DNA of 37,021 nt, from positions 1-37,021 of the forward strand of contig JYFJ02003836.1 in the NCBI GenBank assembly GCA_000934665.2. Direction: 5' to 3'. Numbering within the stretch: the stretch's first letter is position 1; the number at the start of each line of letters is the position of its first letter. The translations under genes and the position numbers were made by a program. This DNA is from Catajapyx aquilonaris. Its lineage: Eukaryota. The notes beneath the pieces were generated by a model. The model saw only the letters and a list, made by a program, of their open reading frames with translations. It did not search any database and was not told where the DNA came from. Below are positions 4,271 to 35,923 of this stretch, in pieces.

Positions 4271-6852
4271 TTATTTTTTATGCAGGATATGAAATGCGAA
4301 TTCCAAAACAAACACCAAAATCGCAACTAGGTGGCAAAATATTACACCGAAGAAGATTCCTTTCGTTTGACTGAAATTGAGAGCAAGGGACGGAGTAGGC
4401 AGCAAGTAATTCTTCTCCCTGGCTTCAAAAATCTTCCCAACGTAAACAGATTCGTAAATGTAGTTTCGATAATAACCCAGCAGGCCAGCAGAGTCCATTC
4501 GTATCAAAAGCGAGTTGAAACGAGGAGTGAGGACACTGTGCTTGGGAAACACCATGGAGCCGTAATATTTGGTTGACGTTTCTTCCGATGAAAGAAACGG
4601 CCATTTTCCAGCCATGTCCAAGAAATTAGACGCTTCCAGGAGCAAGATGTTTTGCGCTCCAAAACAGACGTAGTCTTCGTCTAAGGCCATCTGAAGGCAA
4701 TCCTCGAAGGTGTCCACAACTTCTATCCCATCGGAAAACTTGTGGTGATGATCCAGATCGGACTCGCTCATAATCACCCGGGCATATAGAGCGTGCATTG
4801 CTGTGCTGCCCCATCTCCATCCCTCTCGATTTGTCAACTCTGCGGTGGATCTGTACCGGGAAAAACATGGAATCAAGCTGTGGTGTTTTACACCATAATA
4901 TTGTGATTTGCCACTTTCAGTTTGGAATTAACATGACCTAAGTTTATTAAGTTATATTAGAGATGCTGGGCGGGGATACTTTTTGCATTCCCGTAATTCA
5001 TACCTGGGAAGCATCTCGTGATCCGGGTTGGCCAGAAACCCGATCAGCTTGGCCGTGTATCCACATGTGATGACCACAGCGAATGTCCACCAGAGAGAGA
5101 GGAACATCCTGGCAGAGTGTGACCTCGGGACAAGGTTTGGGTTCTCCTCGATCAGGGTCAGGAGGACATAGGTCAGGGAGTAAGGGAAGAGGGGAGGGGA
5201 GGGCTTGGAGAAGGGGGATGCGACCTTCTTGATGGTGACCAGGAGGAGAAGCCAGAGGAAGAGGCTTCCGATGATGCAGGAGATGGCGATCAGGACCCAC
5301 ATTCCCTTGGTGTACGGTCGGATTATCACGTCCCAGGAATTAATTACACGTGGTTTGCGAGTAAGGCATGCTCCTTGAGATAAGTGATAAATGTACCCAT
5401 ATTCGATAACCTCGAGGGGAGCAGTGAACGTGACTGTAATTGCACCAAGATCGTATTTTCTATACAAAACGGCGCCAACCATGCCAATCCATGTTCCGTA
5501 GTCCATCTTTGGTTCCACAGTCACTGCATTTTCCATCGTCTCCACGGTAAGCTCAAAATTAATTCTGTGTGCCAGTTCATAATATACAAGTTCGGCAAAA
5601 TGATCAATAGGTCGCCAGGAGTAAAACCTCTCTTGTATGTCATTTATGTCTGATGATATCGGGAGAGGAGAAATAAACCGGAAGTGCTTTCCTTGGAGAT
5701 TTCTCGTGAAGTCAGGATATAGCTCATCAAGAGCCCAGGAAGTAGATTCGATTTGGACTATGGGCTTTTTTTCTTTGTTGCAGAAGAAACAGTTTGACCA
5801 AAAAGAGAATACTTCCATGTCCACCACAATGTTGCGTCTGTAAGTTATAAAAGTATATAGTCTGACAAGCAGTATTCTGGATATCCAACATCAAGACGTA
5901 ACATCTTAGAAAAGGTTCTTGAGTGTAAGTTATTCTGAGGAATGCTATCAAAATCAAGCAGTGCTCAAAAACACTTTGCAAGGTTGAAAACATTTCACAA
6001 AATTCTCATTCTTTTCTCTGCTCTGATAATATAGTTACGTAGAATAGTAACATTTCAGTGCGCTGTTTAAAGAAAAATAATATTTCGTCAAGTACGCGCT
6101 ACCTGATGTAACTATTTTATTTGGCAATAGTCGAACATAATGTTTTCCTAGCGCCTCAGTTATCGTGATAGAAGGAGCCTGAATAATTTCACACTGTCAT
6201 GTTTTTAATGTCTGAATTTTTTACGAGTATTTTGTGCAGAAGATTCCTCTGTCTAAATAGTGACACTGTAGCCTGTAGGTCTGTAGGCTATCATTGCAAG
6301 CAAGTCTCCTACCACTCACCTGAGTATCCTGGAGTGTGGGTGCTGCAGTATCTCCTCCACCCCTCCATCCCTGGTGAAGAAGACGAAGTGGTGCAGACGG
6401 GTGTTGAGGAGGACACTGGCTGCAGTGGTCTCGATCAGTGATTCGAAGTTGTAGTGGTGAAGGAAGAAGACGAACAAAGTGCAATGGGACAAGTGTTTGG
6501 CTTCAGGACGATGCAACCAGTCGAACCAGTATGTCACTGGTGCTGTGTAGTTGACTGTGGGCTCCGTGGCCTCTGTGGTGGTGGAGTCTTCCTGTGGCCC
6601 GAGTCTGATGTGCAGAGTCAAGTGTTGGTCATCTGGACTGATGGGCCTGTCCACCAAGCGAGCCAGTTGGTTGGGCAGACGGGAGTAGTCGTGGGCCAGG
6701 ACTGTCAGGCAGGTGCTGTCCAGCTGGGTCTGGATGGCCTCCAGAAGGAGGATCTCTCGCTCAAGTGTCGCGTTGTCACCCTCATCTCCTAGGCGGATTT
6801 GGAGGGAAACGGGGGACAGCAGGACGACAATGGTGCTGAGGAGAGAAAACAT
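4271..6852 (-). CDS. Divergent ionotropic receptor A; exons 6852-6320, 5837-5004, 4850-4271 (648 aa; in-frame alternative ATG at 6861)
   Basis: GT-AG sites join in frame (1947 nt). Signal peptide; S1 motif GTWIGMVGAVLYRKYD; IRPY..GMW before M1; PRSHSARMFLSLWW and GYTAKLIGFL (SYTANLAAF equivalent); S2 FPKHS.L.PRFN..L.RMDSAGL; final TM helix. Confidence 0.9.
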
Positions 6853-8040
6853 TGTCTGCATAGTGCTCGTATCAAGTGGGGCACTTATTCTATGGCTAAT
6901 GGCTCAGAAAAGGGCGCAACTGAAAGGAAATCTTGTTGATTTAATCGACCGTGACCGACTGTTCTTTGACATTTGAGCCCTTTGCATTCCCATATGTCTA
7001 TTAATTGAGTCGTGATGTAAAATACAGGGCATTGCGCATTATTATTAATTCCTCTTAAAATTCCGAAGTAAATTTAAGTGGATACAAAGCAACAAAGGAG
7101 CCGACTCTGGGGAAATGGGAGTCACATTATTCGACATGTTTGTACTGGAACCTAATTTCTTCTGTCGACTAACCTTGAACATACCTATTGATCCTCTTGA
7201 GGAATAGTTGTTTCAGTCGCAGTTTCGTCTCCAGAATGTGCGTGGCCTATGAGTAATTGAATGGCTTTTCTCTTGCGAAGCCTCCCAGTAACTAATAGGC
7301 CAGAAAATTAAGAAAGTCGTAATAATAGTGGACACCAACCAAGAGGCAGGAGACATCCAGTTGTGAATATTAGATCTGCATACCGAAACGAGGTGATGTT
7401 ATTAGAGTCGTGGGTGATATTTTCTTTAAGCATAATTTTTGGCGTGCATAAAAAACAACCAGACTGATCAGGCTGAATAACAGTAAATTACAGCAAGATT
7501 CAGTGCTTTATATCGATTAAAGAAGAAGTGCAAACTCAAAATCAAGCAAAAGTGACTTGAAATAATGCTAACATGCAAGAGTATTCAATGTCCATTAAAA
7601 CTTTGACACACCTGACCTGATATTAATAATGTAAAAACACCAGTACTTGCGCTAAATTTATATTGCCAGATTTCAGACTAGAGGTTACGCCCAGCACTTT
7701 CCATTCAATCTATGCACTTACGTATTATATGCACCCACTCCGCGCGATTGGTTTGGATTATTAATAGTTGCTTCCCAATAAAGACCCTTAAAAAATCGTA
7801 GTGATTATGGTGCTACAAAGTCGTTATTTTCGAACAGTTGATTTTATTGGTTCTGAAAAATTAACTGCTAGTTTTGGGTTGAATGAAAGCATATTAATTC
7901 CCTGAATCCCTTCCTCCAATCATAATATTCTACAGGAGAAAATAAATAAGTCTACATATTGTAAAAGCTGTTTGTACTGTATTTGACGTCATCACAAATG
8001 ACAAATTATGATTCATACTGTTATTAACGGGTCTGGTATA

Positions 8041-8141
8041 GTTAATGGTATAGGAACTGAGGCAATTAAGGCAATAAGTGTGATGATATTAAATATCATC
8101 ACACTTATTGCCTTAATTGGCTCAGTTCTTATACCATTAAC
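8041..8141. repeat. ~100-bp near-perfect palindrome
   Basis: GTTAATGGTATAGGAACTGAGGCAATTAAGGCAATAAGTGTGATGATAT is followed almost immediately by its reverse complement (2 mismatches). Confidence 0.85.
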
Positions 8142-8192
<51 letters not shown>

Positions 8193-8534
8193 GATAATTC
8201 TGAGGTACCGTAATGTGCTTTCGCCCCCACATCGGGGCGTATCGCACGGACCTTTATTTATTGAGGTACATTTGGTGCCTATTCATTTGAAGCGCCCAGG
8301 CCCACGGGCAGGATGACAAGACGGGATGTGCAAGGTGCAGTGCAATGTCTTAATGTGGCCATTTTTAGTGAACTCCCCCGGGTGGTTTAGTCTGTTGGAA
8401 ATACCACCCGAGACGAAGCCAGAGGTGACCCTGAACTCTGCACGAGATGAAGGGGGTGTCCCAGGGTTGGGATCGAACCCGGGACCGTAACATCCGTGGG
8501 CGCATACGTTACCGCTGCACCACTTCGCCTCCCC
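8142..8534 (-). mobile_element. tRNA-derived SINE (family 2) with (GAT)n tail
   Basis: Minus-strand head GGGGAGGCGAAGTGGTGCAGCGGTAAC...GGTTCGATCCC. Body shared with 10145-10355. (CAT)n at 8142-8190. No clear TSD. Confidence 0.8.
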
Positions 8535-8898
8535 ATATTTCATCTATTTAATAATTGGTAACTCTGTAAAAGGGCGGGCCCTTTTCGGAGAACACCATGC
8601 AAAAGGGATCAGAAACAACAATGGTGCAAGGCATACATCATAATAAAGAAATACATAATTGACTCACGAAACATATATGCAAGAAACAGGATAATATACA
8701 CAATGAATCCAACAAACGCTTTTTGTTCAACTATTAAGAGATCTGGGATTTTCACATGAGACAACAAAGGAAATGAAGGGATTCTAATGTTCTTATGGGA
8801 CATAGCTCGGCCGGTCAAGGTAAGAGAAATGTCATATTACACCAAACATTATAAATGACGTGCACAGAAGTGCAATATTGAACAGTGACAGACACTTA

Positions 8899-9048
8899 AG
8901 GCCATTTCACAAAAAAAATGTCGCGCGGCAAACGGCGCGACTTGCGGCAAATTTTATTGTTGCCAACAATTGGCAACAATAAATATAAATAAAAATTTGC
9001 CGCAAGTCGCGCCGTTTGCCGCGCGACATTTTTTTTGTGAAATGGCCT
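8899..9048. mobile_element. 150-bp MITE, PIF/Harbinger-like
   Basis: ~57-bp perfect TIR AGGCCATTTCACAAAAAAAATGTCGCGCGGCAAACGGCGCGACTTGCGGCAAATTTT. TTA TSD at 8896-8898 and 9049-9051. Confidence 0.9.
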
Positions 9049-9258
9049 TTACAGGTCATAATTATATGCGATATCGCGATTATCACGACGTTTAGTTAAG
9101 TGTGAAGGTGTACGGTAAACAGGTCATCATGGTAGATGGTGAGAGAAGGACCAACAACTGTTTTTTAAAGTGATGTGAAGGCCCGAAAAGTATATCCCCT
9201 GTATTAGATAGCAATATCATAAGGTTAGTGACAAATGTGCCCATTGCGTATTATACCT

Positions 9259-12200
9259 TCATAACAAAATAACATCATTTTTATGCAGGCGATGACAGGC
9301 TAATTCCACCGCAAATACCACAACTGCAATGACGTGGCCAAATATTGTACCGAAGAAGATTCCTTTGGTTTGACTGAACTTGAGGGCGAGGGACTGGGTC
9401 AGCAGCAAATAATTCTTCCTCCTTGCTTCAAAAATTCTCCTAAAGTAAACAGATTCGTAAACGAATTTTCGATAGTAAGACAGCAGACCAGCAGCGTCCA
9501 TTCGGATCAAAATCGAGTCGAAACGAGGAGTGAGGACACTGTGCTTGGGAAACACCAAGGCGCCGTAATATCTGGAGGAGGAGTCTTCGGATGAGAGAAA
9601 AGGCCATGTTCCAGCCATGTCCAAGAAATTAGACGCTTCCAGGAGCAGGGTGTTCTGGGCTCCAATACACGAGTAGTCCTCGTCTAAGGCCATCTGAATG
9701 CATTCCTCGAAAGTGTCCGAAGCTTCTATCCCATCGGAAAACTTGTGGTGATGATCCAGATCGGACTCACTCAATATCACTCGAGCATATAGAGCGTGCA
9801 ATGCTGTGCTGCCCCATCGCCATCCCTCTCGATTTACCATATCTGAAGCATATCTGTAGCAGGAGAAATATTGAATCGGATAATTTTTTTTCTGCCTAGT
9901 CCATTACAGCTTAGAATTAAGGTGACTCCAACTAATGTAAATATAATTATTATAATCTAGAAACGGGTATATGACACTTTTATTGGTCATTATATATTTT
10001 TATTTATTTATTTTATTTTTTAAAATTATACCCCGTGCTAGGGCCGAAAGGCCCTCTTAGGGGGGTGGTAATACCACCATATTTGGAATCATGTGTATAA
10101 TTTACAATATTATTTAGTTGGTCCACGATTAGGGTAGGAAAGGAGGGGATGTGCAAAGTGCAAGTGCAATGTCGTTGCTTGGTCATTTTGTGAACTCCCC
10201 CGGGTGCATTAGTCTAGCGGAAATTTCCACCCGAGACGAAGCCAGAGATGGCCCAACTCTGCACGAGATGAAAGGGGGAACCCCGGGTTGGGTTCGAACC
10301 CGGGACCTTAACATCCGTGGGCGCATACGTTACTGCAGTGCCACTCCCGTCTCCCTATTGGTCATTATTTACTGCTGTGCGAACCTATATGCCACAACCC
10401 TAAGTATCATGTTTCAGCCACATTTCCCAATACAGTGTGAAGGGGGACGCTGTCGAAATTTTGGAAGGGGTTGAAAATGTGCCAGTTGTGGCGATTTTTT
10501 TCGGTTAGTGGAAGTGGTCAAAACCCAATAAACATACGAGTATATCAAAACAAAGAGAAAAACAAGATGAATTCAACTATGGAATTATTTTCCATCGGAA
10601 ATGTAACCAGAAAAACGTGTGCGGAATTCCACTGGTCACATGCTCAGTCACATGTCAAAGAATTTGTATGTCGGCAATTTATTAGTGTGTAGGTTATTTG
10701 CGTAACATCAGTCATATTTTGTGACAGGAGTTGTGATCCACACAAGCTTTAATATGTTCAGTTTCAAGCCTGGTACATGCATGGTTCACGAGAAAATATT
10801 AGAGATTTTTCTCGGGTTATCATTATTAATTTTCGGGGACCCAAATTCTTGTATATGTGACCGATGGAATTCCACACACATTTTTCTGGTTACATTTTAA
10901 AGGAAAACTAATTCCACAGTTGCATTTCGTTTTTATTTTATTTGATATGTATAATATTATGTTTAAAGAAAACCTAGGCTTTATTTTCAGTCCCTTATAA
11001 TTTTTTTTTATATTTTCCCCCTCCACACGGTATTGTGCAATATAATTATGCCTCCAGGGGGGTGAGGGAGTGTGGGAGGGCGGAGCAAAGCGAGTATGCT
11101 GAATAAAGTCCCCTGGCGAGGATGTAGGAGGAGGAGGAAGAATATAAATTATATGATGGAAAAGATCTCCCACGTCCCGAGGTCGTAGAAGGCTGGGAGA
11201 ACCACAGTTTGATTCCTTACCCACGAATTAGTTGAGCCAGCCCAGTCCAGAGCCCCATTGCCTCACAAAGCGAGTAGGTGGCGTTAATAAGCCTGAACGA
11301 CCAGAACTATCAGTTCTATAGCTCGTTTTTTTCGCCCAATGGCCGTTTTCAGGGTTTGAGCCTAACATATCCATCGTGAGTGTTTGACTATGATTGTGAT
11401 GAAGCCATTAAATGTAATACGCTGTGCAGAAGTGCACTATTTTATGATATCTATCGCGATTCGTACCTGGGAAGTGTCTCGTGATCCGGGTTGGCCAGAA
11501 ACCCGATGAGCTTGGCCGTGTATCCACAGGTGATGACCACTGCGAATGTCCACCAGAGAGAGAGGAACATCCTGGCAGAGTGTGACCTGGGGACAAGGTT
11601 TGGGTTCTCCTCGATCAGGGTCAGGAGGACATAGGTCAGGGAGTAAGGGAAGAGGGGAGGGGAGGGCTTGGGGAAGGGGGAGGTGACCTTCTTGGTGGTG
11701 ACCAGGAGGAGAAGCCAGAGGAAGAGGCTTCCGATGATGCAGGACAGGGCGATCAGGAGCCACATTCCATTGGTGTACGGTCGGATTATCACGTCCCAGG
11801 AATTAATTACACGTGGTTTGCGAGTAAGGGATGCTCCTTGAGAAATGTGGCAAAAGTACCCATATTCGACAACCTCTAGCGGAGCAGTGAACGTGACCGT
11901 AAATGCACCAAGATCGTATTTTCTGTACAAAACGGCGCCAACCATGCCAATCCATGTTCCGTCGTCCATCTTTGGTTCCACAGACACAGCGTTTTCCATC
12001 GTCTCTACAGTAATCTCAAAGTTACTTCTAATCGCCAATTCATAACATACAAGTTCGATAATATGATCTATAGGTCGCCAAGAGTAAAACCTATCTCGTA
12101 TGTTATTTCTGTCTGACGATATCGGGAAAGGAGAAACAGCCAGGAAGTGAGTTCCATGTAGATCTCTAGTGAAATCGGGATATAACTCATCAAGAGCCCA

Positions 12201-13135
12201 AGTAGTGGACTGGATTAGGACTATGTCTGATTTTTCTTTGTTACAATAGAAGCAGTTTGACCAAAACGAGAAGGCGTCCACGTCGACAGCAAGGTTGCGC
12301 CTGGAAGATACAAAATATGGAGCATGGTAGGCAGTCTAATGGATATGTAAAGGCAATGCAAATAATCAAAATACTGTAATGTGGAAGATCGTCAATTTCT
12401 CTGGTTTTATTCCCCACAGGCCAACGTATAGCTTTCCTGGTGCAACATAATAATATTGTCAGTGGGAGCCTTAATTGCACAATTCTTTTGGTGTCTGCAT
12501 TTTCTAATGTAGTATTTCGTACAGGAAGACTCTAGGATTAATGTTGCAATAAAGACAGTGGCATAATTATACAGGAGATCTCCTATCACTCACCTGAGTA
12601 TCCTGGAGTGTGGGTGCAGAAGTATCTGCTCCACCCCTCCATCCCTGGTGAAGAAGACGAAGTGGTGCAGACGGGTGTTGAGGAGGACACTGGCTGCAGT
12701 GGTCTGGATCAGTGACTCCAAGTTCTGGTGACGGAGGAAGAAGACGAACAAGGCGCAGTTGGAGTGATGGGTGGCACCGGGAAGATGCAGCCAGTCGAAC
12801 CAGTAAGACACTTGTGAAATCGTTTCATTGACGTTCAGATCATTTTGTGTCGCCTCCGTGGCAGCAGTGTCATTCTCCAAATGTGTCGGTCGAATAAGCA
12901 GCATCATTCGCTCTTTTTTATGAAATCGGCCCAGCAATTGTGTCAGGTGTTGAGGAAGATGATCATAATCGTGGGAAATGGCAATCAGGCAAGAGTCGTC
13001 GAGCTGGGACTCAATTTCTTCTAAGAGAACATGTTCGCCAGGAAATGTCTTGTTGTCACTTTCAGGCATATGTGAATTAGCAGATGCAATGGAAATTAAA
13101 AACGTAACCGCAAGAACGAACATATTGCCACCCAT
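9259..13135 (-). CDS. Divergent ionotropic receptor B; exons 13135-12594, 12300-11467, 9853-9259 (656 aa; start could be 13123)
   Basis: In-frame GT-AG joins (1971 nt) and the same IR motifs. Exons 2 and 3 are closest to gene A. Distinct signal peptide MFVLAVTFLISIASA. Intron 2 is expanded to 1.6 kb. Confidence 0.9.
9994..10355 (-). mobile_element. SINE family 2 copy in intron 2 of gene B
   Basis: B-box GGTTCGAACCC on the minus strand, A-rich tail, 13-bp TSD TATTGGTCATTAT at 9981-9993 and 10356-10368. Confidence 0.88.
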
Positions 13136-13674
13136 TGAATGTGAAATTGCGTGACAAAAATGAACGATATGTTTCGTAAACGGAGGATATACCGTTTGCG
13201 AGCAAGAGCAACAGAATATTGAGAAATCAAACTTGGTCAGTTTATCGTAAATCATGCAGCATCTATCAGATGAAAAAAATATCCCCAGAGCCCATATAGC
13301 TATAAGGGAGGAGGCAATCGTTTCATAAGTTTACGGACACACCCTTTTGATGTAGACTATAATAGAACATAATTTTATTGATAGTACAGAGTTTCATTAA
13401 GTGTTGCATAATGGTTATTCACAAAATATTTGGTCCCACCATAATTTCCAAAAAAAAACATTCTCTCAAAGGATTGTAATGTACGTTCCCGGATAATATA
13501 GTCATTTTATTTTAATCTCTAACTATTTGACAGCTTGGGTAACATTTAAGGTGTTTATTGGGCTTACCAACCATTAAGTTCTCAAGCCCACACTAAAATA
13601 CTAGCAAACAATACACAATAGCATACAGCAATACACAAATCAACAAAATTTAAACATTGGTAAACGAGAGCTGG

Positions 13675-13675
<1 letters not shown>

Positions 13676-14625: not shown

Positions 14626-16793
14626 TTACTTCCAGCGACGGATACTACACGAGAGAGAAATTTTTTCGGCAATGAACGTGATAAGTGCAATTGAATGCAA
14701 GAGTATAATGCCATAAAACATTCCCTGCATCTGAATAAAATTCAAAGCCATGGATGGGGCATGCCACACTGGACGGTTTCCAGCTCTGGCCTGGTTGACT
14801 TTTTCTATTTTCATTACGCTGAAACTGTACAGTGTGTAGTATTCGGAAAGACCAGAGGCCTCCAAGTGCAAAAATTTGCTATCGAAACGAGGGATAAGAA
14901 TGTCATGCTTGGGGAAAAAAACGGCGCCAAATAATTTAACAGAAGTGTCCATCGCCTTGATGAAAGGCAGGTTTCCTTCTTTGTCCAGAAATTCGTAGGC
15001 GGCCTGCATCAGTAATAATTCCCCGCTAATGCATGCAAAATCTGAGGTTAGAGATTCACGGAGACATTCGTCGAAATTTTCTATCATCTGAATTGGCTCG
15101 AGCAAGGCAGTCAGAGATTCCGCTTCTGCATCAGCGAATAAAATCTTGGCAAATATCACGTGCATTGGTATGGAACCCCAAGACCATCCTGGGCGATACA
15201 CCAACTCCAGTAGGTTACTGCAACAAAAAATTTACAATATTAGATGAAGAACTGATAATGGTGCGTAGTTTGCGTAAAAATTATTCATACCTTGGTAAGG
15301 ATTCATGCAGTGGATTGGCTAGAAACCCGATCAACTTGGCGGTGTGTCCACATGTGATGACCACTGCGAATGTCCACCAGAGAGAGAGGAACATCCTGGC
15401 AGAGTGTGACCTCGGGACAAGGTTTGGGTTCTCCTCGATCAGGGTCAGGAGGACGTAGGTCAGGGAGTAAGGGAAGAGGGGAGGGGAGGGCTTGGGGAAG
15501 GGAGAGGTGACCTTCTTGGTGGTGACCAGGAGGAGAAGCCAGAGGAAGAGGCTTCCGATGACGCAGGAGATGGCGATCAGGACCCACATTCCGTAGGTGT
15601 AGGGCCGGATTACCACATCCCATGAGTCTACCACTCTTGGTAGGCGTGTAACAAATGTCATTACAGTATAGTAATAGAAGTATCCGTACTCGATTACCTC
15701 GAGAGGATTGGGGAATGGTATTGAAAAAGGACAGAAGTCGATTCTCTGGTGAAGAATCTCCCCAATCATCCCTATCCATGTCCCGTCGTCCATCTTGTTC
15801 CCAAGAGCAATTGCGTTTTCCATTATTACTAGCACCAAATTAAAATTCATTGAGTCTGTCAGGTCCCGGTATAATAACTCGGGAAAGACAAGTGTCTTGC
15901 GATCTCTGAATTTTTGGTCCACAACGGTGGTGTTGGTTTCGATGTCCGCAAAAGCGAAAGTTCCCACCAAAGATTTTCCGTGCAAGTCCATAGTAAAATC
16001 CGGGAACAGAATGTCCAGTGTAGATGTGAGCTGATCGATCTCGACTACTTTCTGCTCTCCGTTGTCGCAGAAGAAGCAATTTGTCCAGAGAATTTCTGTT
16101 TCCATGTCCACTACAAGTTTATACCTGAAAGAATATGTGTACTTATATCCTGTACACGATATGCAAGCTGATGCTATAAAAATATTATCATCATGCGCAC
16201 ATTCTGCTTATACACCCTATAAAATAATGAGTTTATGATAATTATGGACTGAATGCTTACTTGAGATGGCGTGATCGTTGATGCAACAGGATCGTGTCCA
16301 CTCCCCCATCCTTGGTGAAGAACAGGAAGAGATGCATCCTGGTGTTGAGGAGGACAGTGGCTGCAGTGGTCTCGATCAGCGATTCGAAGTTCTGGTGGTG
16401 AAGAAAGAAGACGATGAAGGTGCAGTGGGACAAGTGTTTCGCTTCAAGACGATGCAGCCAGTCGAACCAGTACGTGACTGGTGCAGTGTAGTTGACTGTG
16501 GGATCCGTGACCTCTGTTGTGGCGGAGTATTCCTGTGGCCCGAGTCTGATGTGCAGAGTCAAGTGTTGGTCATCTGGACTGATGGGCCTGTCCACCAAGC
16601 GAGCCAGTTGGTTGGGCAGACGGGAGTAGTCGTGGGCCAGGACTGTCAGGCAGGTGCTGTCCAGCTGGGTCTGGATGGCCTCCAGAAGGAGGATCTCTCG
16701 CTCAAGTGTCGCGTTGTCACCCTCATCTCCTAGGTGGATTTGGAGGGAAACGGGGGACAGCAGGACGAAAAGGGTGCTCAGGAGAGAAAACAT
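14626..16793 (-). CDS. Divergent ionotropic receptor C; exons 16793-16261, 16124-15291, 15217-14626 (652 aa)
   Basis: In-frame GT-AG joins (1959 nt). IR motifs DGTWIGMIGEILHQRIDF, PRSHSARMFLSLWW, GHTAKLIGFL, FPKHDILIPRFD. Confidence 0.9.
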
Positions 16794-23847: not shown

Positions 23848-24442
23848 TCAACGAGGGAAATATATTAAGGAATGCAAGAGTATGAAGTGTTCGACAGTTG
23901 TGGTTCACCATATACCGCTACTTGTCATCTCTTGCCAAACTGATTCCTTAAACTAGGCTTTTAATTATTATAATTATTTTGGCATATCAGATGGCACATG
24001 TATTTTTCTAATAAATGTCGCTAAAACTTGTTTCTATCGTGGCTAATAACAATTATTGCAACATGTGAAAGCAGTGTGATTTGCTGTCGACTATATGGAA
24101 TTGTGCAAAGTTAGATTATTATTTTCCTTTCGTGGATGATAACATGAAAACAAACTACTGGTGATATTTTATGCAGTCACTTGCAATACATAGACGTTGT
24201 CAGCTACTTATAAGCTAATTTCCTTGCTAATAACATTGTCGTGTCGAAGGCCAATCACTTTTTAAAACATATGTACTAGATGCGGGTTGCCGTAGACATT
24301 GTCGTGAAACTAATTACGATTAATCCACTTATGTTAATGTAGCAATACTGAGATTGAGCTGTGCAAAAATTACATTTCTAACAAGCCTGACAAGAACAAA
24401 TAATTATGTCCAGTTATATCTGCTTGTGTTTATGGCTGTGGT

Positions 24443-26704
24443 TCACACAAGGCCGCGCTTGATATGGTAGAAAACAACCTTCTCAATGACTGCAGCGACA
24501 ATTGCAGCGCAGTAAGTCAACATGACACCGTAATACAGGCCCTTCATTTGATTGAAATTCAATGCCATTGATGGGGTTTGCCACAAGTGATTTCTAACTC
24601 TAGCCTCGTCGATTTTGAGTACTCGGTGTACAATAAGATAGTATTGTTCGTAATATTCCAACAACCCAGATGCCTCCAGATGAAGAAAAAACTTGTCCAC
24701 ACGTGGAACGAGGATGTCGTGCATGGGAAAAATTAGGGTGCCCAGGTATCTTATGGATGTGTCAATGGACATGGAGAAGGGAAGGTTTCCTTCCATGTCC
24801 AGGAACTCGTAGGCGGCCTCGGTGATGTGCAATTCGCCACTTACACAGGCATAATCTTCTGTTAGGGCTATGTGGAGACACTCGTCGAAGGTCTCAATCA
24901 CTTCCATTGAGTCCCCTAGAGCAATCAGCGATGGTATATCCGACTCGCCGAGTAATACCTTGACAAATAAACTGTGCAGGGGTATACTTCCCCATGACCA
25001 TCCTGAACGACTCACCAACTCTGGTATGTTACTGCAACAGGAAACTATTGTTAGCAGTCAGTTTTAAATTTTAATGAATGAATTAAATTATGCATGGCAG
25101 GTATTCCTACAACGTACCTTGGTAATGACTCGTGATCCGGGTTGGCCAGAAACCCGATCAACTTGGCCGTATATCCACAGGTGATGACCACCGCGAATGT
25201 CCACCAGAGAGAGAGGAACATCCTGGCAGAGTGTGACCTCGGGACAAGGTTTGGGTTCTCCTCGATCAGGGTCAGGAGGACATAGGTCAGGGAGTAAGGG
25301 AAGAGGGGAGGGGAGGGCTTGGGGAAGGGGGAGGTGACCTTCTTGGTGGTGACCAGGAGGAGAAGCCAGAGGAAGAGGCTTCCGATGATGCAGGAGATGG
25401 CGATCAGGAGCCACATTCCGTAGGTGTATGGCCGGATTATCACGTCCCAGGAGTCGACTATTCGTGGTACGCGTTTGACAAATGTGACATGAGAAGAATA
25501 AAAGGGATAAATCATCTCTGTGACCTCCATTGGCTCGCTGAATGCCAGTGTTCCAGGGCAGAAGTCGACTCTCTCGTAAAGAATCTCTCCGACCAAACCT
25601 ATCCATGTCCCGTCGTCCATCTTATTTTCAAGCGGTATTGCGTTTTCCATCTCTACCATCACCAATTCAAAATTCATTAAGGCAGTCATGTCCTTGTAAT
25701 ATAGCTCGTGCTCCCAAACTGTCTTTCTATCGTAGAATCTTTGCCTTACGACATCCCAGTCCTTTTCGAAGTCAGGTAACCCATACAATCCTACCAAAGT
25801 TTTGCCATGTAAGTTGAAGGTAAAATCCAGATATAGTTTGTCTAAGTTGGAGGTGTACTGGTCCACCTCAATCACTTTCGGCTGTCCTTTGTCGCAGAAG
25901 AAGCAGTTCGTCCAGCGTACGTGTGTTTCCATATCCACTACAAGTTTATATCTGCAAGGATGCATTCCAATAATTGTTGCGCAAACTGGGGCATTCTCCA
26001 ATGAGAGTGCGAGGCAAAATTGAAAGGTTTTAAAACAAAATTATACTACTCAAACCAAACTCTACTTAGGTAGAGTTCAAATGGTCACCTTACATGCTTA
26101 TTAGTTATTACAATCATGTCGTCTTATGTACAGTACATCGCTGAGGCGAAGGACACTGAATGAGCACTTACTTGAGATGGCGTGATCGCTGATGAAACAG
26201 GATCTTGTCCGCTCCCCCATCCTTGATGAAGAATAGGAAGAGATGCATCCGGGTGTTGAGGAGGACCGTGGCTGCAGTGGTCTGGATCAGTGAGTCGAAG
26301 TTGTAGTGGTGAAGGAAGAAGACGAACAAAGTGCAATGGGACAAGTGTTTGGCTTCAGGACGATGCAACCAGTCGAACCAGTACGTGACTGGTGCTGTGT
26401 AGTTGACTGTGGGCTCCGTGGCCTCTGTGCTGGTGGAGTCTTCCTGTGGCCCGAGTCTGATGTGCAGAGTAAAGTGTTGGTCATCTGGACTGATGGGCCT
26501 GTCCACCAAGCGAGCCAGTTGGTTGGGCAGACGGGAGTAGTCGTGGGCCAGGACTGTCAGGCAGGTGCTGTCCAGCTGGGTCTGGATGGCCTCCAGAAGG
26601 AGGATCTCTCGCTCAAGTGTCGCGTTGTCACCCTCATCTCCAAGGCGGATTTGGAGGGAAACGGGGGACAGCAGGACCAAAAGGGTGCTCAGGAGAGAAA
26701 ACAT
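24443..26704 (-). CDS. Divergent ionotropic receptor D; exons 26704-26172, 25951-25118, 25031-24443 (651 aa)
   Basis: In-frame GT-AG joins (1956 nt), IR motifs; recent duplicate of gene E including the introns. Confidence 0.9.
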
Positions 26705-29353
26705 TGTCTGCAGAGTGGTCGTAGCAAGTGGTACATTGACTATCTATAACTATAACTGCGGATAAAACAGTACGCTCATCAACTGTGAAAGGACAATTTG
26801 TGTCTATGAATATGACCAGAAGTATTGCTTTGAGATTTAGGCCTAGCAATCCCGTAACCAATCCCTGCTATATTTGTATGTCACAACTCCTGCCCTTCAA
26901 GTACTATTTCGGCATGTGAGGTGCACACGTGCGTGAATTTAAGTGAACGGAAATAAACCGCTCTAGGAAATGAACCACATAATGCTTATCTATATGCTCC
27001 TAATGGAACCTAATTTTACGGTCGAATTATCTTGAGCACACTCGTACACTTTGAATAGGTCTACTGAACTGATTTCTAAAACAATTACCTCTACCAAAAT
27101 ATGCGCAACAGTTTCAGGGCCCACGTGGTACAAAAATGATGAATGTCGGTTTATTGATAGGTTCAGGTTAAAATATAACAAGAAGAACCCTCGCTTCGCG
27201 CGCAATTTTTTATGGTGCAGGCCTAGAAAACCACTCGCTTCGTTGGTTTTTTCTATTCCTGGGGCCTGCGGTTTAAACCTTGTTGTTAATGATGCCCATC
27301 CAACAACTATGCGCATCATATTCTCCTCTCCCCCTCCCTCCCCCTGCATATACGATCATATGCACCATGTCGTCGTGCTGATTCGAACCCGGGAGGTTTG
27401 CAACCCGCCTTTTTGTCACGTTCGATTCTACGTATTCGCCAGTAGTAAGTTTCTGACACTTCACCGAAAGAAGTTGGGTGTAGGCGTGTGCCTCGAAAAC
27501 ATTGTACTGTACTTCCCATCTGTGAAAGTATAGCAAGGGTAGACCTACTCCAGCAGTTCTGAAGCAGTCCAGTTGATGATAAATTTTTAATATTCTTCTA
27601 ATGCTCTTGTGATGATCCTGGGATGTTTTTTTGTTTCTTAAAAGCATAAGAAAGCATTAGAAGAGCATTAAAAATTGATGTTCCATGAGAGACTCACCAG
27701 TAATGCTCTTTTAATGTTTTGTGGTTTACAGTGTAGCTACAGTACTGTACAGTAGCCTATGAAGTATCCATGCGTAAAGACATATCAAGGTAAACCTCTC
27801 CTGATCAAAAAGGTCATCAGAAAATATCAGAAAAACAAGCGCATAAGTATGTAGTTAAGACACTTTCGATGTAAATCGTGCTGCTTACGAAATCCAAGGT
27901 ACAATAAACGTAGACGGTGGGTAATGACAAAACTGTGGCTTTCAGCAGGAGACATTACATATTTATTATTTTCTTATATCCCTTTATTACCGATTGGCTC
28001 TATTTGGAGAAGGAGTACAATAAAGCAGCGAATGTGGCTTATTCAGTTACTTATTCAGATTACAGCATCCTCAGAATAGTCCTAGAAGTAATGTAAATCT
28101 TATTTTTTGTGTGATCGACTGCGACAAATTATAATGGCTCTTAACAATAAGCATTATAAGCATGACATATTCGGTGCTGCCAAATTTAGTGATACTATAT
28201 CTGTGATTACAACATTTTTGTGCTAATATTTGTGTCACAATGGTGAAAAATAATGAAGTATACAACTTGAACCTTCCCTATTGATTACTTATTAACAGAT
28301 CCATATTTGTGTACTACCGTACATTAATATGCTAGTAGCGGATCCGTTGCCAAAGTTTAGCAACACTACTTGGCCCACTCCCCAACTTGGAAGTAGTACT
28401 GTATGACAGGCCCCTACCAGGTGGCTCATAGACTGTCCCTCTGTACCTACTGCCACATGCCGTGCTTATAATAGGGAAGGTAGTACTACATGTCTACATG
28501 CACGTACCAGGGTCCTATAACCAGCACGTGTCTCACCTGAAGTGGAACCAACCCTTCTCTGACCGCCAAATGTTCTCTATAATATATTGTTCAACGGGAA
28601 AAGTGATAAACCTTAGTTAACCTTCTAGACTATTTCTCTCTAACTATTCTAGGAGATGAGTGTTGACGGACATTTAAGCACACAGAGAGGATAATGCTTT
28701 TATTTATGTGATAATTATATATAAGTAGTCCTATAATTGCTGCACAATTTAAGTCAGAGTCAAGCCGCTCTTACTTGAATAAATATATAGTATAGCAAGC
28801 AACCTTGTACGTACAGTATGTTGCAATCGGAAATAATAATTTGCACACAGGTTATGTAAAGGAGGAAATATTGATATATCTAAAGCTACATACAGTATAG
28901 GTCAAGGGTAAGGCAAGAATCCAACGGTCAATGATCAGATTATGTAATCCATTACGTAATTACGTAATGTCACTTTTCCTTCTCTATTTTCAGTATATTT
29001 TTCTCATTTTAAACTTACATCCTCTATTCCTCTTTTCATTTTCCAAAAATTGATTTCAACGAGAAAAATATGTGAACAATTATTGCTACATGTGAAAGCA
29101 GTGTGATTTACTGTTGACTATATCGAATTGTGCTAAGTTAGATTATTATTTCCCTTTCGTGCATGATAACAGGAAACAAACTACTGGTGATATTTTATGC
29201 AGTCACTTCCAATACATATACGTTGTCAGATACTTATAAGCTAATTTCCTTGCTAATAACATTGTCGTGTCGAAGGCCAATCACTTTTCAAAACTAGCCA
29301 CGGGTTACTCATCTGTAATATACAAATTCGTAGACATTGTCGTGAAACTAATT

Positions 29354-29429
29354 GAATCGGTGGTTTTGAAAAGGGCAAGATACCATGCCCTTTTCATGTG
29401 AATATTGCCCTTTTCAAAATGACCGATTC
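29354..29429. mobile_element. 76-bp MITE with 4-bp AATT TSD
   Basis: TIR GAATCGGT..TTTTGAAAAGGGCAA. AATT at 29350-29353 and 29430-29433. The duplicate at ~24306-24320 has one AATT (GAAACTAATTACGAT). Confidence 0.85.
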
Positions 29430-29556
29430 AATTACGATTAATGCACTTGTGTTGATGTAGCAATACTGAGATTGGGCTGTGCAAAAATTACATTTCTAAC
29501 AAGCATGACAAGAACAAATATGCCCAGTTATATCTGCTTGTGTTTATGACGGTGGT

Positions 29557-31812
29557 TCACACACGGCCGCGCTTGTTTTGGTAGAAAACAACCTTCTCAA
29601 TGACTGCAGCGACAATTGCAGCGCAGTAAGTCAACATGACACCGCAATACAGGCCCTTCATTTGATTGAAATTCAATGCCATTGATGGGGTTTGCCACAA
29701 GTGATTTCTAACTCTAGCCTCGTCGATTTTGAGCACTCGGAGTACAGTTAGATAGTACTGTTCGTAATATTCCAGCAACCCTGATGCCTCCAGATGAAGA
29801 AAAAACTTGTCCACACGTGGAACGAGGATGTCGTGCATGGGAAAAATTATGGTGGCCAGGTATCTTATGGACGTGTCGATGGACATGGAGAAGGGAAGGT
29901 TTCCTTCCATGTCCAGGAACTCGTAGGCGGCCTCGGTGATGTGAAATTCGCCACTTACACAGGCATAATCTTCTGTCAGGGCAATCTGAAAACACTCAGC
30001 GAAGGTCTCAATCACTTCCATTGAGTCCCCTAGAGCAATCAGCGATGGTATATCCGACTCGCCTAGTAATATCTTGATAAATAAACTGTGCAGGGGTATA
30101 CTTCCCCATGACCATCCTGAACGACTCACCAACTCTGGTATGGTACTGCAACAGGAAACTATTGTTAGCAGTCAGTTTTATTTTAATGAACGAATTAAAT
30201 TATGCATGGCATGTACTCCTACATCGTACCGTGGTAATGACTCGTGATCCGGGTTGGCCAGAAACCCGATCAACTTGGCGGTGTATCCACAGGTGATGAC
30301 CACTGCGAATGTCCACCAGAGAGAGAGGAACATCCTGGCAGAGTGTGACCTCGGGACAAGGTTTGGGTTCTCCTCGATCAGGGTCAGGAGGACATAGGTC
30401 AGGGAGTAAGGGAAGAGGGGAGGGGAGGGCTTGGGGAAGGGGGAGGTGACCTTCTTGGTGGTGACCAGGAGGAGAAGCCAGAGGAAGAGGCTTCCGATGA
30501 TGCAGGAGATGGCGATCAGGAGCCACATTCCCTTGGTGTACGGTCGGATTAGCACATCCCAGGAGTCGACTATTCGCGGTACGCGTTTGGCAAATGTGCC
30601 ATGAGAAGAGTAAAAGGGATATACCATCTCTGTGACCTCCAGTGGCTCGCTGAATGCCAATGTTCCTGGGCAGAAGTCGACTCTCTCGTAAAGAATCTCT
30701 CCGACCAAACCTATCCATGTCCCGTCGTCCATCTTATTTTCAAGAGGTACCGCGTTTTCCATCTCTACCATCACCAATTCAAAATTTATTAAGGCAGTCA
30801 TGTCCTTGTAAAATAGCTCGTGCTCCCAAACTGTCTTTCTCTCGTAGAACCTTTGCCTTACGACATCCCAGTCCTTTTCGAAGTCCGGGAAACCGTACAA
30901 TCCTACCAAAGTTTTGCCATGTAAGTTGAAGGTAAAATCCGGATATAGTATGTCTAAGTTGGAGGTGTACTGGTCCACCTCGATCACTTTCGGCTGTCCT
31001 TTGTCGCAGAAGAAGCAGTTCGTCCAGCGTACGTGTGTTTCCATATCCACTACAAGTTTATATCTGCAAGGATGCATTCCATGTATAATATTGTTGTACA
31101 AATTGGGGCATTCTCCTATCAGAGTGTGATGCAAAATTGAAGGGTTTTAAAACAAAATAATACTACTCAAACTCTACTTAGGTAGAGTTCAAATGGTCAC
31201 ATTACATGCTTAAGTTATTAGTTATTACAATCATGTCGTCTCATGTGTACATCGCTGAGGCGAAGGACACTGAATGCGCACTTACTTGAGATGGCGTGAT
31301 CGCTGATGAAACAGGATCGTGTCCGCTCCCCCATCTTTGATGAAGAACAGGAAGAGATGCATCCGAGTGTTGAGGAGGACCGTGGCTGCAGTGGTCTGGA
31401 TCAGTGAGTCGAAGTTCTGGTGGTGAAGGAAGAAGACGAACAAAGTGCAATGGGACAAGTGTTTGGCTTCAGGACGATGCAACCAGTCGAACCAGTACGT
31501 CACTGGTGCTGTGTAGTTGACTGTAGTGGCCTCTGTGCTGGTGGAGTCTTCCTGTGGCCCGAGTCTGATGTGCAGAGTAAAGTGTTGGTCATCTGGACTG
31601 ATCGGCCTGTCCACCAAGCGAGCCAGTTGGTTGGGCAGACGGGAGTAGTCGTGGGCCAGGACTGTCAGGCAGGTGCTGTCCAGCTGGGTCTGGATGGCCT
31701 CCAGAAGGAGGATCTCTCGCTCAAGTGTCGCGTTGTCACCCTCATCTTCAAGGCGGATTTGGAGGGAAACGGGGGACAGCAGGACGAAAAGGGTGCTCAG
31801 GAGAGAAAACAT
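29557..31812 (-). CDS. Divergent ionotropic receptor E; exons 31812-31286, 31063-30230, 30145-29557 (649 aa)
   Basis: In-frame GT-AG joins (1950 nt), IR motifs; 6-bp in-frame deletion in exon 1 relative to D. Confidence 0.9.
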
Positions 31813-33412: not shown

Positions 33413-33680
33413 TACCGTCCATGTGACAGGCTTTTTGTCTCACTTCATGTTTTATTCATGTTTCAGGGTACACGAAAAGGACACCTCTGGGATACCTGGT
33501 GCACCTCAGCGGCAGATTTTGGTATGTCCCATCTTACACCTGATCACAAAGGTTGACAAATACGGGTAAGGTCAACAATACATAACTCAATGCCAAACCG
33601 GAGAACAAACCTTGCATTTGTTTTATATTCAGGGACAGGGCTACAACAAGTATTACTTTTTCGGGGCCTCTTTGAGATTA
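33413..33680 (-). repeat. Degenerate tandem copy of the 3' end of gene F (last TM, C-tail, start of 3' UTR)
   Basis: 33413-33680 aligns to 33681-~33955 (TACCGTCCATGTGACAGG...AAACCTTGCATTTGTTTTATATT) with indels. Confidence 0.85.
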
Positions 33681-33767
33681 TACCGTCCATGTGACAGGTT
33701 TTTAGTGTCACTGCATGTTTTATTCAGGGTACACGAAAAGTACACTTCCTGGATACAGGATGCATCT

Positions 33768-35923
33768 TCAGAGGCAAACTTTGATACGTCTCACTTTACA
33801 CCTGATCACAATTTTCTCAATAAGAAATGCGGGTAAGGCCAACAATAGATAACTCAATATCAAGCCGTAGAATAAACCTTGCATTTGTTTTATATTGAGT
33901 GCCAGAGAAGGAATCTGCAACAAGTACCGCCTTTTCCGGGCATCATTGAGCTTATCCACGAAAGGAGTGAAATATGAATACTCCAAATGATACGCATTCA
34001 ATCCAGCAGCATCCGATCGAAGAATCAGGGAATCAAAGCGCGGAAGAAGGACATCATGCTTCGAAAACACCATCCCGCATATGAACCCAGAGGAAGGGTT
34101 GTCCACCGCAACAAAAGGATAGTTGGCCTCCATGTCCAAGAAATCGTAGGCTGCAAAACGGATATACCAATTTTCGCTCAGGCAGGCGTAATCTTCGTTG
34201 AGGACTGAGAGGAGACATTCCTCGAAGTCGTCTCTGGATTCAAGGTTGTCTGCCAGATACTGAAGGCTGTCCAAGTCAGCCTCTCCAAGGAGCATCTTGG
34301 CAAAAATCGCGTGAAGGGAAATGGTGCCCCATCTCCAACCTGGACTCGATATCAGGTCTTCCACATTCCTATACATGCAAGGTGAAATAATGAGTCAGAA
34401 GACACAATTACATCACGGGTAGGCCTGAAGTTGTACTTACTTTGGGAGCGTCTCATAAAGCGGATTAACCAGAAACCCGATCAACTTGGCCGTGTATCCA
34501 CATGTGATGACCACTGCGAATGTCCACCAGAGAGAGAGGAACATCCTGGCAGAGTGTGACCTCGGGACAAGGTTTGGGTTCTCCTCGATCAGGGTCAGGA
34601 GGACATAGGTCAGGGAGTAAGGGAAGAGGGGAGGGGAGGGCTTGGGGAAGGGGGAGGTGACCTTCTTGGTGGTGACCAGGAGGAGAAGCCAGAGGAAGAG
34701 GCTTCCGATGATGCAGGAGATGGCGATCAGGAGCCACATTCCGTAGGTGTACGGTCGGATTATCACGTCCCAGGAGTACAGAATTCGAGGTTTGCGAGTG
34801 AGATAAGTCATGTGAGATCGGTAAAAATGGTAACCAAACTCGACCACTTCAAGAGGACCAGCAACGGCAATTGTTGCAATACTAAAATCAGCCTTCCGGT
34901 TGAGAATAGCTCCGGTCACTCCAATCCATGTGCCATCGTCCATTTTCTCATCCGCGGACACTGCATTTTCCATTAGATCAATCTTCAGCTGGAAGTTTAT
35001 CTTGACGCTCAAGTCTCGAAACAATAATTCCACTAGTTGAAGGTGTTTCCGATCATAAAATCTCTTTTCTATGAGATCATAGTCTGTGAGCAAGTTGTCA
35101 AATGGATAAGCCGCCACAACGGTCTTACCATGCATGTCAAATATGAAATCAGGGAATAAATTCAGCAGACTGGAAGTATTTGAGTCTATTTCGACAATTT
35201 GTGCTTCTCCGTGGTCGCAGAAGAAGCACACTGACCATCGTGACGAGGTCTCCATTTCCATTACCAACTTTTTGCTGTAAGTAACAAGATCAAGGGATTA
35301 TTACTCACATATTTCAAGATATGTGCAACTAAATATTCTGCTATATAATTCGGATTGTATGGACAGACTACAGAATTTACTCACCCGAGTATCCTGGAGT
35401 GTGGATGCAGAAGTATCTCCTCCACCCCTCCATCCCTGGTGAAGAAGACGAAGTGGTGCAGACGGGTGTTGAGGAGGACACTGGCTGCAGTGGTCTGGAT
35501 CAGTGACTCCAAGTTCTGGTGACGGAGGAAGAAGACGAACAAGGCGCAGTTGGAGTGATGGGTGGCACTGGGAAGATGCAGCCAGTCGAACCAGTACGTG
35601 ACTGGTGAGGTGTGGTTGACTGTCGGATCTTCAACTATGACCTCTGTGGTGGTGGAGTCTTCCTGTGGCCCGAGTCTGATGTGCAGAGTCAAGTGTTGGT
35701 CATCTGGACTGATGGGTCTGTCCACCAAGCGAGCCAGTTGGTTGGGCAGACGGGAGTAGTCGTGGGCCAGGACTGTCAGGCAGGTGCTGTCCAGCTGGGT
35801 CTGGATGGCCTCCAGAAGGAGGATCTCTCGCTCAAGTGTCGCGTTGTCACCCTCATCTCCTAGGCGGATTTGGAGGAAAACGGGGGCCAGCGGGACGAAA
35901 AGGGTGCCCAGGAGAGAAAACAT
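33768..35923 (-). CDS. Divergent ionotropic receptor F; exons 35923-35385, 35274-34441, 34368-33768 (657 aa)
   Basis: In-frame GT-AG joins (1974 nt). DGTWIGVTGAILNRKADF, PRSHSARMFLSLWW, GYTAKLIGFL, FSKHDVLLPRFD. Confidence 0.9.

Follow-up and report, generated by a model that had tools for sequence, protein, structure and literature searches.

The question raised by this locus is how the first exon of a row of tandem genes can carry an ancestry that conflicts with that of exons 2 and 3. The window (the whole stretch analysed, contig JYFJ02003836.1 of Catajapyx aquilonaris, 37,021 nucleotides) contains six intact three-exon divergent ionotropic receptor (IR) genes, A–F, which encode 648–657 residues, have all reading frames open and are interrupted by introns that are all of phase 2 with GT..AG ends. 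A sequence-only reading had described exon 1 between 6320 (the last base of exon 1 of A) and 35923 (the ATG of F) as a mosaic of three blocks; these coordinates hold, and the block motifs match those quoted. The features are as follows.

1..122, minus strand: gene 0, start of block 1, the rest cut off by the contig end.
2183..2643, minus: remnant, a pseudogene; 167 bases of block 1 (2477–2643) joined out of frame onto the 3′ half of exon 3, with an internal deletion.
4271..6852, minus: gene A, intact IR, 648 residues; exons 6320–6852, 5004–5837 and 4271–4850; by identities and tree tests, an apparent chimera with a B-type body behind a 5′ tract of D/E type.
6445..6852, minus: D/E-like tract of gene A (block 1 and block 2); over its 408 bases, 9 differences from D and 40 from F.
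6417..6444, minus: switch in gene A from D-type to family-type sequence (last D-type site at column 417, first F/B-type site at column 446).
9259..13123, minus: gene B, intact IR, 652 residues; exons 12594–13123, 11467–12300 and 9259–9853; apparently native block 1 with a family-type 3′ half of exon 1 (read contigs 12782–13350 and 11933–12616).
12594..12811, minus: constant segment 1 (blocks 2 and 3, majority form) in gene B.
11461..11801, minus: constant segment 2 (coding for M1–pore–M2, equivalent to iGluR M1–M3) in gene B.
~5015–5354 (A), ~15303–15627 (C), ~25112–25494 (D), ~30250–30580 (E) and ~34435–34817 (F), minus: constant segment 2 in the other genes.
14626..16793, minus: gene C, intact IR, 652 residues; exons 16261–16793, 15291–16124 and 14626–15217.
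24443..26704, minus: gene D, intact IR, 651 residues; exons 26172–26704, 25118–25951 and 24443–25031; C-type upstream region, then an E-type body (95%).
26711..29556, minus: E–D spacer, in pieces 79–91% like the D–C spacer (16807–24442).
29557..31812, minus: gene E, intact IR, 649 residues; exons 31286–31812, 30230–31063 and 29557–30145.
33768..35923, minus: gene F, intact IR, 657 residues; exons 35385–35923, 34441–35274 and 33768–34368; body 96–97% identical to a gene on contig C5605, upstream region 87% to that of E.
35385..35630, minus: constant segment 1 (majority form) in gene F.
35639..35923 (F), 6568–6852 (A), 16509–16793 (C), 26420–26704 (D) and 31528–31812 (E), minus: block 1, homogenized among its carriers.

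Judged from sequence, the family appears to consist of ionotropic receptors of the iGluR superfamily. The ligand-gated channel domain (PF00060) is recognized in exon 2 above the cut-off in A (E = 9e-11) and in F (E = 5e-11), the S1 domain (PF10613) lies at the cut-off in F and below it in A, the family profile matches GluA2 with an E value of 4e-17 and the atlas neighbours are arthropod iGluR/IR clusters. When the family profile is aligned with GluA2, the arginine of LVREEVIDF, which binds glutamate in S1, is matched by P/L within 'ta.plevvey', and this arginine appears to have been lost, as in divergent (tuning) IRs. The region preceding S1 comprises ~175 residues of exon 1 and ~40 residues of exon 2. 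An ATD Pfam family was sought in the exon 1 proteins and was absent from all 35 of them; a short N-terminal region (~200 residues) without a full ATD is characteristic of IRs in the accessible text of Croset et al. (2010; PMC2924276). The model of the N-terminal region is of low confidence (pLDDT 54), with best matches at Z = 5.8 that are tied between residues 109–231 of the GluA1 ATD (r.m.s.d. 3.4, 118 aligned) and LacI-type domains, and a Foldseek search with it gave no match at E ≤ 0.001. A profile search of exon 1 returned three matches, all distant and none named, and a weak protein search with exon 2 of B among longer proteins scored none of 2154 candidates. The genes are probably divergent (tuning) IRs, for which chemosensory expression and assembly with IR25a/IR8a are presumed from the class.

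Block 1 is near-identical in A, C, D, E and F, unlike in B, as had been claimed: the nucleotide identities are 95–99% among the five carriers and 52–53% to B, and gene 0 (97.5%) and the remnant (94.6%) share it too. Block 2 is 99% identical between A and D, 97% between A and E, 89% between A and C and 99% between B and F, with 76–80% between the groups, and the EAKHLSHC form has four matches in the whole assembly, only in A, C, D and E. For block 3 the values are 96–98% within A/B/F, 92–96% within C/D/E and 69–76% between the groups. In both variable parts of exons 2 and 3, A and B are indeed close (85%), and F is 51–57% identical to the other five. In the triplet of A against D and F, informative sites run 25:0 in favour of D and then 2:29 in favour of F (permutation p ≤ 5e-5, 20,000 shuffles). 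A single topology for all blocks, which the sequence-only reading had named as fatal to it, was not found: each of 105 topologies fails the AU test in at least one of the six blocks, a result that, where block 1 of the six genes is concerned, depends on the long branch of B and has little weight alone, the family trees and identities carrying the point. Because of these site runs and AU tests, the exon 1 mosaic is confirmed as real and not due to chance. Block 3 alone is compatible with the tree of exons 2 and 3 (pAU 0.65), its anomaly lying in short branches. Conversion and crossing-over in exon 1 survive from the earlier proposal, and three freely shuffled modules do not: the main exchange is one cut, between promoter plus block 1 and the remainder, and the separate pattern of blocks 2 and 3 arises from one local event, the copying of a D/E-type tract into A.

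Three coding stretches are homogenized, and the genes affected form a different set for each: block 1, which codes for a predicted signal peptide and the first half of the N-terminal domain, in 9 of 36 gene models; the 3′ half of exon 1 in 27 of the 36, B and F among them; and M1–pore–M2 in most genes, with 95–99% identity among all six of A–F. The 36 models are survivors, 28 of 64 exon 1 matches having been set aside because they were broken or lacked a part. Membership of the three sets differs from gene to gene. The stretch in exon 2, a second one beyond exon 1, was missing from the sequence-only reading. Four-fold-site identity over the 36 genes is 75–90% in the exon 1 stretch, 75–92% in the pore stretch and 36–60% in the variable part of exon 2. 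GC3 of block 1 is 70% in the nine carriers and 45% (36–56) in the 27 others, and that of the pore stretch is 80–83% in members and 58–62% in non-members (16 genes shown); when members and non-members are compared over the same segment, GC3 is high only where the gene belongs to the set of that stretch. The near-identical silent sites and raised GC3 of all three stretches seem to be the mark of repeated gene conversion, and the tracts show what is expected of regional interlocus conversion, including trees discordant between tracts and flanks. Programmed or site-specific cassette exchange fails as a description, as the 5′ ends of the exon 1 tract are scattered over residues 93–107 in most members and the donors are ordinary intact genes, not silent copies.

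Upstream DNA goes with block 1, and intron 1 and everything after it goes with the body. An upstream score of at least 60 was reached by 15 of 34 pairs that have only block 1 in common, by none of six that have only the body in common and by two of 568 with neither. That upstream DNA travels with block 1 argues for unequal crossing-over in exon 1; the upstream regions of carriers align at ~65–95% and block 1 at 95–99%. Supported splits conflict in 5 of 14 cases between block 1 and the S1 part and in 0 of 12 and 0 of 17 between the S1 and S2 parts, the trees of which are compatible. All 15 pairs with at least 80% identity in the S1 part reach at least 75% in the S2 part and only 10 of the 15 do so in block 1, the discordant pairs being non-independent and representing about four to five events. 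No crossover was seen in the pore stretch, where it would separate S1 from S2, and hybrids of that kind are probably removed by selection. Flanking markers are exchanged in array order, as in hybrid genes, clearly in E–D–C and in a triplet on C5605 and weakly in B–A–remnant (62% in the upstream region, over 337 bases). A comparison of the 3′ flanks of A and B gave no likeness, an outcome that is compatible with a crossover model but is no demonstration of it. The likeness of the spacers suggests that the duplicated unit is the body of one gene with the upstream region of the next.

With a probability of roughly 0.8, we consider that conversion-maintained stretches and unequal crossing-over in exon 1 explain the mosaic genes, on comparisons all made within one genome with the three distant matches as the only protein relatives. 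The six genes belong to a lineage-specific expansion of at least 50 divergent IRs, in which repeated GC-biased interlocus gene conversion would keep the three stretches alike. Tandem genes paired out of register would then recombine unequally through the homology of these stretches. Where the exchange falls in exon 1, the resulting middle gene would take its promoter, its signal peptide and the first half of its N-terminal domain from the downstream neighbour and its body from the upstream one, a polarity that E–D–C, B–A–remnant and the C5605 triplet have in common. The copying from D/E into A would be a later conversion of ~410 bases.

Misassembly, in which a short-read assembler paired 5′ parts with the wrong 3′ parts through the near-identical exon 1 stretch, or the copies were evened out by polishing, would fit the 2014 short-read data and the many contigs that end within shared blocks. 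It is improbable as a general explanation and could still account for single pairings, such as that of F. The pore stretch is longer (~300–400 against 215–290 bases in most members) yet has no conflicts between its flanks, GC3 cannot be raised by assembly, and C, D and E reach their bodies from block 1 via their own form of blocks 2 and 3. Free of any phasing, block 1 occurs at 15 exact places without a matching set of near-identical bodies, the median identity of the carriers' bodies being 56%. In contigs built independently from raw reads (four runs, all from a single sample that is probably the one behind the assembly), the blocks appear as shared words of high depth, with 376–1291 in bins over shared blocks and 35–46 in unique bins (run X1); a further run, X5, contained none of the words. 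These k-mer contigs cannot phase across 165–450 shared bases and are not seen to bridge the switch point of A, but they join, without differences, block 1 of B to the family form and the bodies of A and B to the family block 3, and so confirm the multi-copy blocks and three joins. At their loose ends and joints a SINE-like repeat filled the tables, and no tract boundaries were found there.

Alleles or haplotigs are ruled out for A and B, which lie on one contig, are 85% alike and have equal depth (the depth analysis covered both). F and its C5605 twin, with a block 1 unrelated to that of F (42%), may be such a pair. An overlap of the window end with C5605 was rejected, the 92-base exact match being a repeat with at least 40 matches, and adjacency is not supported.

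The sequence-only reading had viewed B as a diverged copy and had implied, besides free modules, a specific exchange between B and F over 23 kb. The two are 96.5% identical over 230 bases, including 32 of 32 four-fold sites, but this version is very improbable and largely refuted. Both genes carry the majority form, from which one 32-mer occurs at 36 places in the genome; block 2 of B is 99% identical to many genes (at least 95% to 26 of the 35 others in the family) and that of F 100% to several, which leaves no particular B–F link, and block 3 fits the backbone tree. The polarity was also wrong, as it is the B/F form of blocks 2 and 3 that is family-wide. Block 1 of B clusters with that of two genes on contig C251 (UFBoot 97), a lineage that is sister to A and B in exon 3 (UFBoot 99); the original front end would thus persist in B and have been replaced in A, and the chimeras appear to be A, F and D. 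A joint switch at YWFDWLH holds for B, where the tract starts (residue 107), and not for F, where the match to family sequence begins ~9 codons earlier.

Even less credible is selection without recombination, acting on the nucleotide sequence (RNA structure or an exonic enhancer) or on the protein alone. Conservation is expected of stretches that code for structural parts (pore and N-terminal domain), but silent sites are saturated at conserved motifs elsewhere (the DDGTWIG window has 71% amino-acid and 42% silent identity), folding of the two constant segments is no better than that of shuffles (z-scores −1.1 and −0.03) and membership of the three sets varies gene by gene. Moreover, the minority WLHRP state is found in two distant homologues that are unlike one another at this place, which makes the majority form the apparently derived one. 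Least probable of all is recent whole-gene duplication with very fast divergence of the ligand-binding parts, which would likewise alternate alike and unlike parts and is refuted by the silent-site contrast (between A and F, 19 of 58 four-fold sites alike in the saturated variable parts versus 49 of 51 in block 1; Fisher p = 1e-12) and by the diverged introns and upstream DNA.

A functional extension of the conversion and crossing-over reading is tentative and, in our estimate, rather unlikely. The conversion-maintained 3′ half of exon 1 might act as a standing 'socket', where repeated crossovers would give a promoter, together with the front of the N-terminal domain that faces the co-receptor, another intact ligand-binding domain as partner. 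A given specificity would then come to be used by other neurons (or another co-receptor), with selection purging crossovers in the longer pore stretch. One promoter/front-end type would in this way have come to stand on at least four unrelated receptor lineages, and chimeras may still segregate. According to the accessible part of a cryo-EM preprint (10.64898/2026.09.30.755715), all that a tuning IR subunit retains of the ATD is the R2 lobe, and this lobe is in contact with the co-receptor.

On the favoured reading, conversion islands and front-end swaps, and not plain birth-and-death, can shape the evolution of an arthropod-type IR repertoire, and whole-gene trees mislead for such families. 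The natural pairs A/B and F with its 96–97% twin make the contribution of the promoter and short N-terminal domain testable against a nearly constant ligand-binding domain. A literature search found no IR case of such homogenized stretches with front-end swaps.

Unequal crossing-over in tandem arrays yields hybrid genes such as Lepore globin and the L/M opsin hybrids, where, as here, one neighbour supplies the 5′ end of the middle gene and the other its body. The parents of those hybrids are alike throughout, whereas the likeness of the IR parents is ~55% outside short islands that are maintained by conversion. For chemosensory families of Drosophila, the text available of PMC4122928 gives the effects of gene conversion as negligible, with few IR cases, and judges plain birth-and-death the rule; a huge IR expansion is attributed to unequal crossing-over in PMC6938034, the main text of which does not contain 'gene conversion', and the available portions of PMC7944917 and PMC6211649 hold nothing on IR conversion. 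As in the divergent IRs described in the text seen of Croset et al. (2010), the genes have Lig_chan domains, a short N-terminal region and lineage-specific tandem expansion; divergent IRs of Drosophila are mostly single-exon, unlike the present genes with two fixed phase-2 introns.

Fugu clustered protocadherins, in the accessible sections of PMC1852091, show a similar sharp boundary between 60–80% and ~99% identity, subclusters each with its own converted sequence and GC3 raised from ~41% to 54–69%, as GC3 is raised in the IR stretches. They have one converted 3′ region per subcluster, whereas the IRs have three internal ones of overlapping, independent membership and exchanged flanks at one of them. 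The avian γ-c odorant receptors, as far as the available text of 10.1101/2025.11.14.688425 describes them, are likewise chemoreceptor mosaics, with ~300-base GC-rich homogenized tracts, diverse ligand-contacting parts and discordant trees, and the authors propose partitioned conversion tracts. Unlike the IRs, they are single-exon vertebrate GPCRs for which that text reports no per-tract gene sets and no promoter or front-end swaps; their species-specific clades have been shown, whereas the IR comparisons were made within one genome.

The 285.6-Mb assembly comprises 20,583 contigs, and the window is the whole of one of them (C2035). Its minus strand carries, in order of transcription, the six intact genes F, E, D, C, B and A, followed by a remnant (a pseudogene piece) and the start of gene 0, which is cut by the contig end. 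Each of A–F has three exons (about 530, 834 and 590 bases), separated by two introns that are both in phase 2, and encodes 648–657 amino acids in an uninterrupted reading frame. Exon 2 of the family genes encodes ligand-gated channel domains, and a profile of the exon 2 protein, built from 26 sequences, matches GluA2 (E 4e-17) but lacks the S1 arginine present in GluA2. The atlas neighbours of the family proteins are mostly arthropod. By sequence, A–F are divergent ionotropic receptors (IRs). The window also contains the following features.

2183–2643, minus strand: the remnant, in which an internal deletion joins 167 bases of block 1 (the 5′ block of exon 1) out of frame to mid exon 3
18508–21708: foldback element of 3.2 kb between C and D, with arms of about 1,340 bases (98% complementary) and a 525-base middle
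8320–8550 and 10143–10371: two copies, 82% alike, of a tRNA-like SINE-type repeat
446–587, 2979–3122 and 22570–22715: a second SINE-type family
33413–33955: the end of F exon 3, tandemly repeated just downstream (77%)
36930–37021: the 92-base end of a repeat, matched almost exactly at 40 or more places, mostly contig ends
8002–8130, 3356–3484, 8896–9050 and 22724–23824: short perfect or near-perfect MITE-like inverted repeats in spacers
13730–14050: a fragment upstream of B with no Pfam match, which by motif we take to resemble the terminal part of a non-LTR reverse transcriptase/RNase H

The exon 3 part of the remnant is 79% like a gene on contig C6651. Over 700 bases, the region upstream of gene 0 (123–700) shares 95–96% identity with its counterpart in a gene of contig C6071 that carries block 1 (stretch L040), the two being either recent duplicates or alleles. 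A block 1 carrier near 9000–10138 of C6071 (L012/L040) has exon 1 joined to exon 2 by an in-frame-looking deletion and a broken exon 3. A short piece resembling a transposase (frames 19665–20015; no Pfam match) lies at the ends of the foldback arms. For the first SINE-type repeat, the summed contig depth exceeds 100,000, implying thousands of copies, and ARAGORN finds no tRNA in it. The 92-base repeat end marks a young element at which the assembly breaks. More distant IR-like genes that lack the constant segments adjoin family members elsewhere (L041, plus strand, 462–1727; L034, minus strand, 7209–9065).

A sequence-only reading had described exon 1 as a mosaic of three blocks, and its block patterns held as given when sequences and identities were re-checked. 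None of the 105 six-gene topologies passes the AU test in every block: six survive in each of blocks 1, 2 and 3, 34 in the pore stretch (the M1–pore–M2 coding segment of exon 2) and one each in V1 and V2 (the variable parts of exons 2 and 3). The single tree allowed by V1 and by V2, ((A,B),(C,(D,E)),F), is rejected by block 2 (p = 2.5e-5) and also by block 1 (p = 0.006; weak, since B is a long branch), and is not rejected by block 3 (p = 0.65). Only A, C, D and E carry block 2 in its EAKHLSHC form. In gene A, D-like sequence gives way to F/B-like sequence between 6445 and 6416 (sites 25:0 and then 2:29, p ≤ 5e-5). Because A and D differ at only 9 of 408 bases up to this switch and at 31 of 97 beyond it, the D-like 408-base stretch is most readily explained as a local conversion tract.

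The family was surveyed with 36 gene models obtained from 64 exon 1 matches in 40 fetched stretches, 28 matches being discarded as cut, broken or unspliceable. With one mismatch allowed, a block 3 32-mer occurs at 36 genomic places and a pore-stretch 27-mer at 52 (reversed controls, 0); a block 1 30-mer occurs at 15. Two details of the sequence-only reading, that B had diverged in block 1 and, by implication, that its likeness to F was special, are not borne out. B is an ordinary gene, since the form of the exon 1 3′ half (blocks 2 and 3) that it shares with F is the majority form, carried by 27 of the 36 models, and in block 1 its sister group is a pair of genes on contig C251 (UFBoot 97), the relation that A+B show in exon 3 (99). 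For both B and F, block 2 is at least 95% identical to that of 26 of the 35 other family genes. It is the nine genes with the shared block 1 that stand out: they are 95–99% alike there, have a median V1 identity of 56% and occupy four separate places in the V trees. The body of F (the gene after block 1) is 96–97% identical to a gene on contig C5605, whose block 1 is only 42% alike to that of F. The minority WLHRP state is also seen in two distant homologues, which suggests that the majority form is derived and spread as a sweep.

The shared stretches probably stay alike through gene conversion. Identity at four-fold sites among the 36 genes is 75–90% in the exon 1 3′ half, 75–92% in the pore stretch and 36–60% in V1; the conserved DDGTWIG window shows 71% amino-acid and 42% silent identity. 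GC3 tracks set membership: 70% in block 1 carriers against 45% in the others; 80–83% in pore-stretch members against 58–62% in non-members; and, in the exon 1 3′ half, 70–77% in majority genes and A/C/D/E against 51–63% in the five other minority genes. Membership of the three homogenised sets is independent; six genes have a private pore stretch despite the majority exon 1 form, and the converse, a shared pore stretch without that form, holds for C, D, E and four others. The block 1 tract ends near the ATG, the carriers' upstream regions being homologous yet mostly 65–88% alike. As RNA, the exon 1 3′ half and the pore stretch fold no better than shuffles.

Upstream DNA tracks block 1 and intron 1 tracks the body, with upstream scores of at least 60 in 15 of 34 pairs sharing block 1 only, 0 of 6 sharing the body only and 2 of 568 sharing neither. 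D combines the body of E (95%) with the upstream region of C (87% over 694 bases), and the E–D spacer matches the D–C spacer. In a C5605 triplet, the middle gene has its body from the upstream neighbour (96%) and its block 1 and upstream region from the downstream neighbour. A has the body of B and a weakly remnant-like upstream region (62% over 337 bases). All three arrangements (E–D–C, the C5605 triplet and B–A–remnant) share one polarity and are as expected from unequal crossing-over within exon 1. Among 32 genes, supported splits conflict in 0 of 12 and 0 of 17 cases between V1 and V2 and in 5 of 14 for block 1. This asymmetry, with conflict at block 1 but not across the pore stretch, is suggestive rather than proven, because the discordant pairs represent about four or five events.

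Apparent chimeras could also arise by misjoining across the shared parts of exon 1. Contigs from four runs of one sample were compared over A and B (4950–13350). They follow, without differences, gene B from its upstream region through block 1 to the family form (12782–13350) and the bodies of B and A into family block 3 (11933–12616 and 5470–6342), with no phasing across the shared parts. Depth in run X1 is 35–46 in unique bins and 376–1291 over shared blocks, where summed depth gives no copy number. Misjoining is nevertheless very improbable as the general cause: the pore stretch is longer than the exon 1 stretch, yet has no mismatched flanks, GC3 is raised in the shared stretches, and block 1 at 15 copies lacks a set of matching bodies.

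A structure model of exon 1, although poor (pLDDT 54), shows two α/β halves with a low-confidence linker at residues 84–109, within which the majority tract starts. Its best structural matches (Z 5.8, from this poor model) are the GluA1 ATD, tied with LacI-type domains. A preprint (10.64898/2026.09.30.755715) describes a tuning IR that retains only the R2 lobe, which contacts the co-receptor; the GluA1 match is in line with this, although LacI-type domains match equally. An exon 1 swap would replace the promoter, the signal peptide and half of a putative R2-type lobe, leaving the ligand-binding domain whole.

The mosaic is real and is a variant of a known process. Our literature search found no paper on such IR mosaics, its coverage of subscription papers being thin, and genome-paper supplements may bear on the question. 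In Drosophila chemosensory families the effect of gene conversion is given as negligible in PMC4122928. Fugu protocadherins (PMC1852091) and avian gamma-c odorant receptors (10.1101/2025.11.14.688425) resemble the genes of the window in undergoing regional conversion with raised GC3. To these systems the window adds the polarity of the chimeras, three conversion sets whose memberships are independent, a promoter that moves with block 1 and the absence of conflict between S1 and S2, the two ligand-binding halves.
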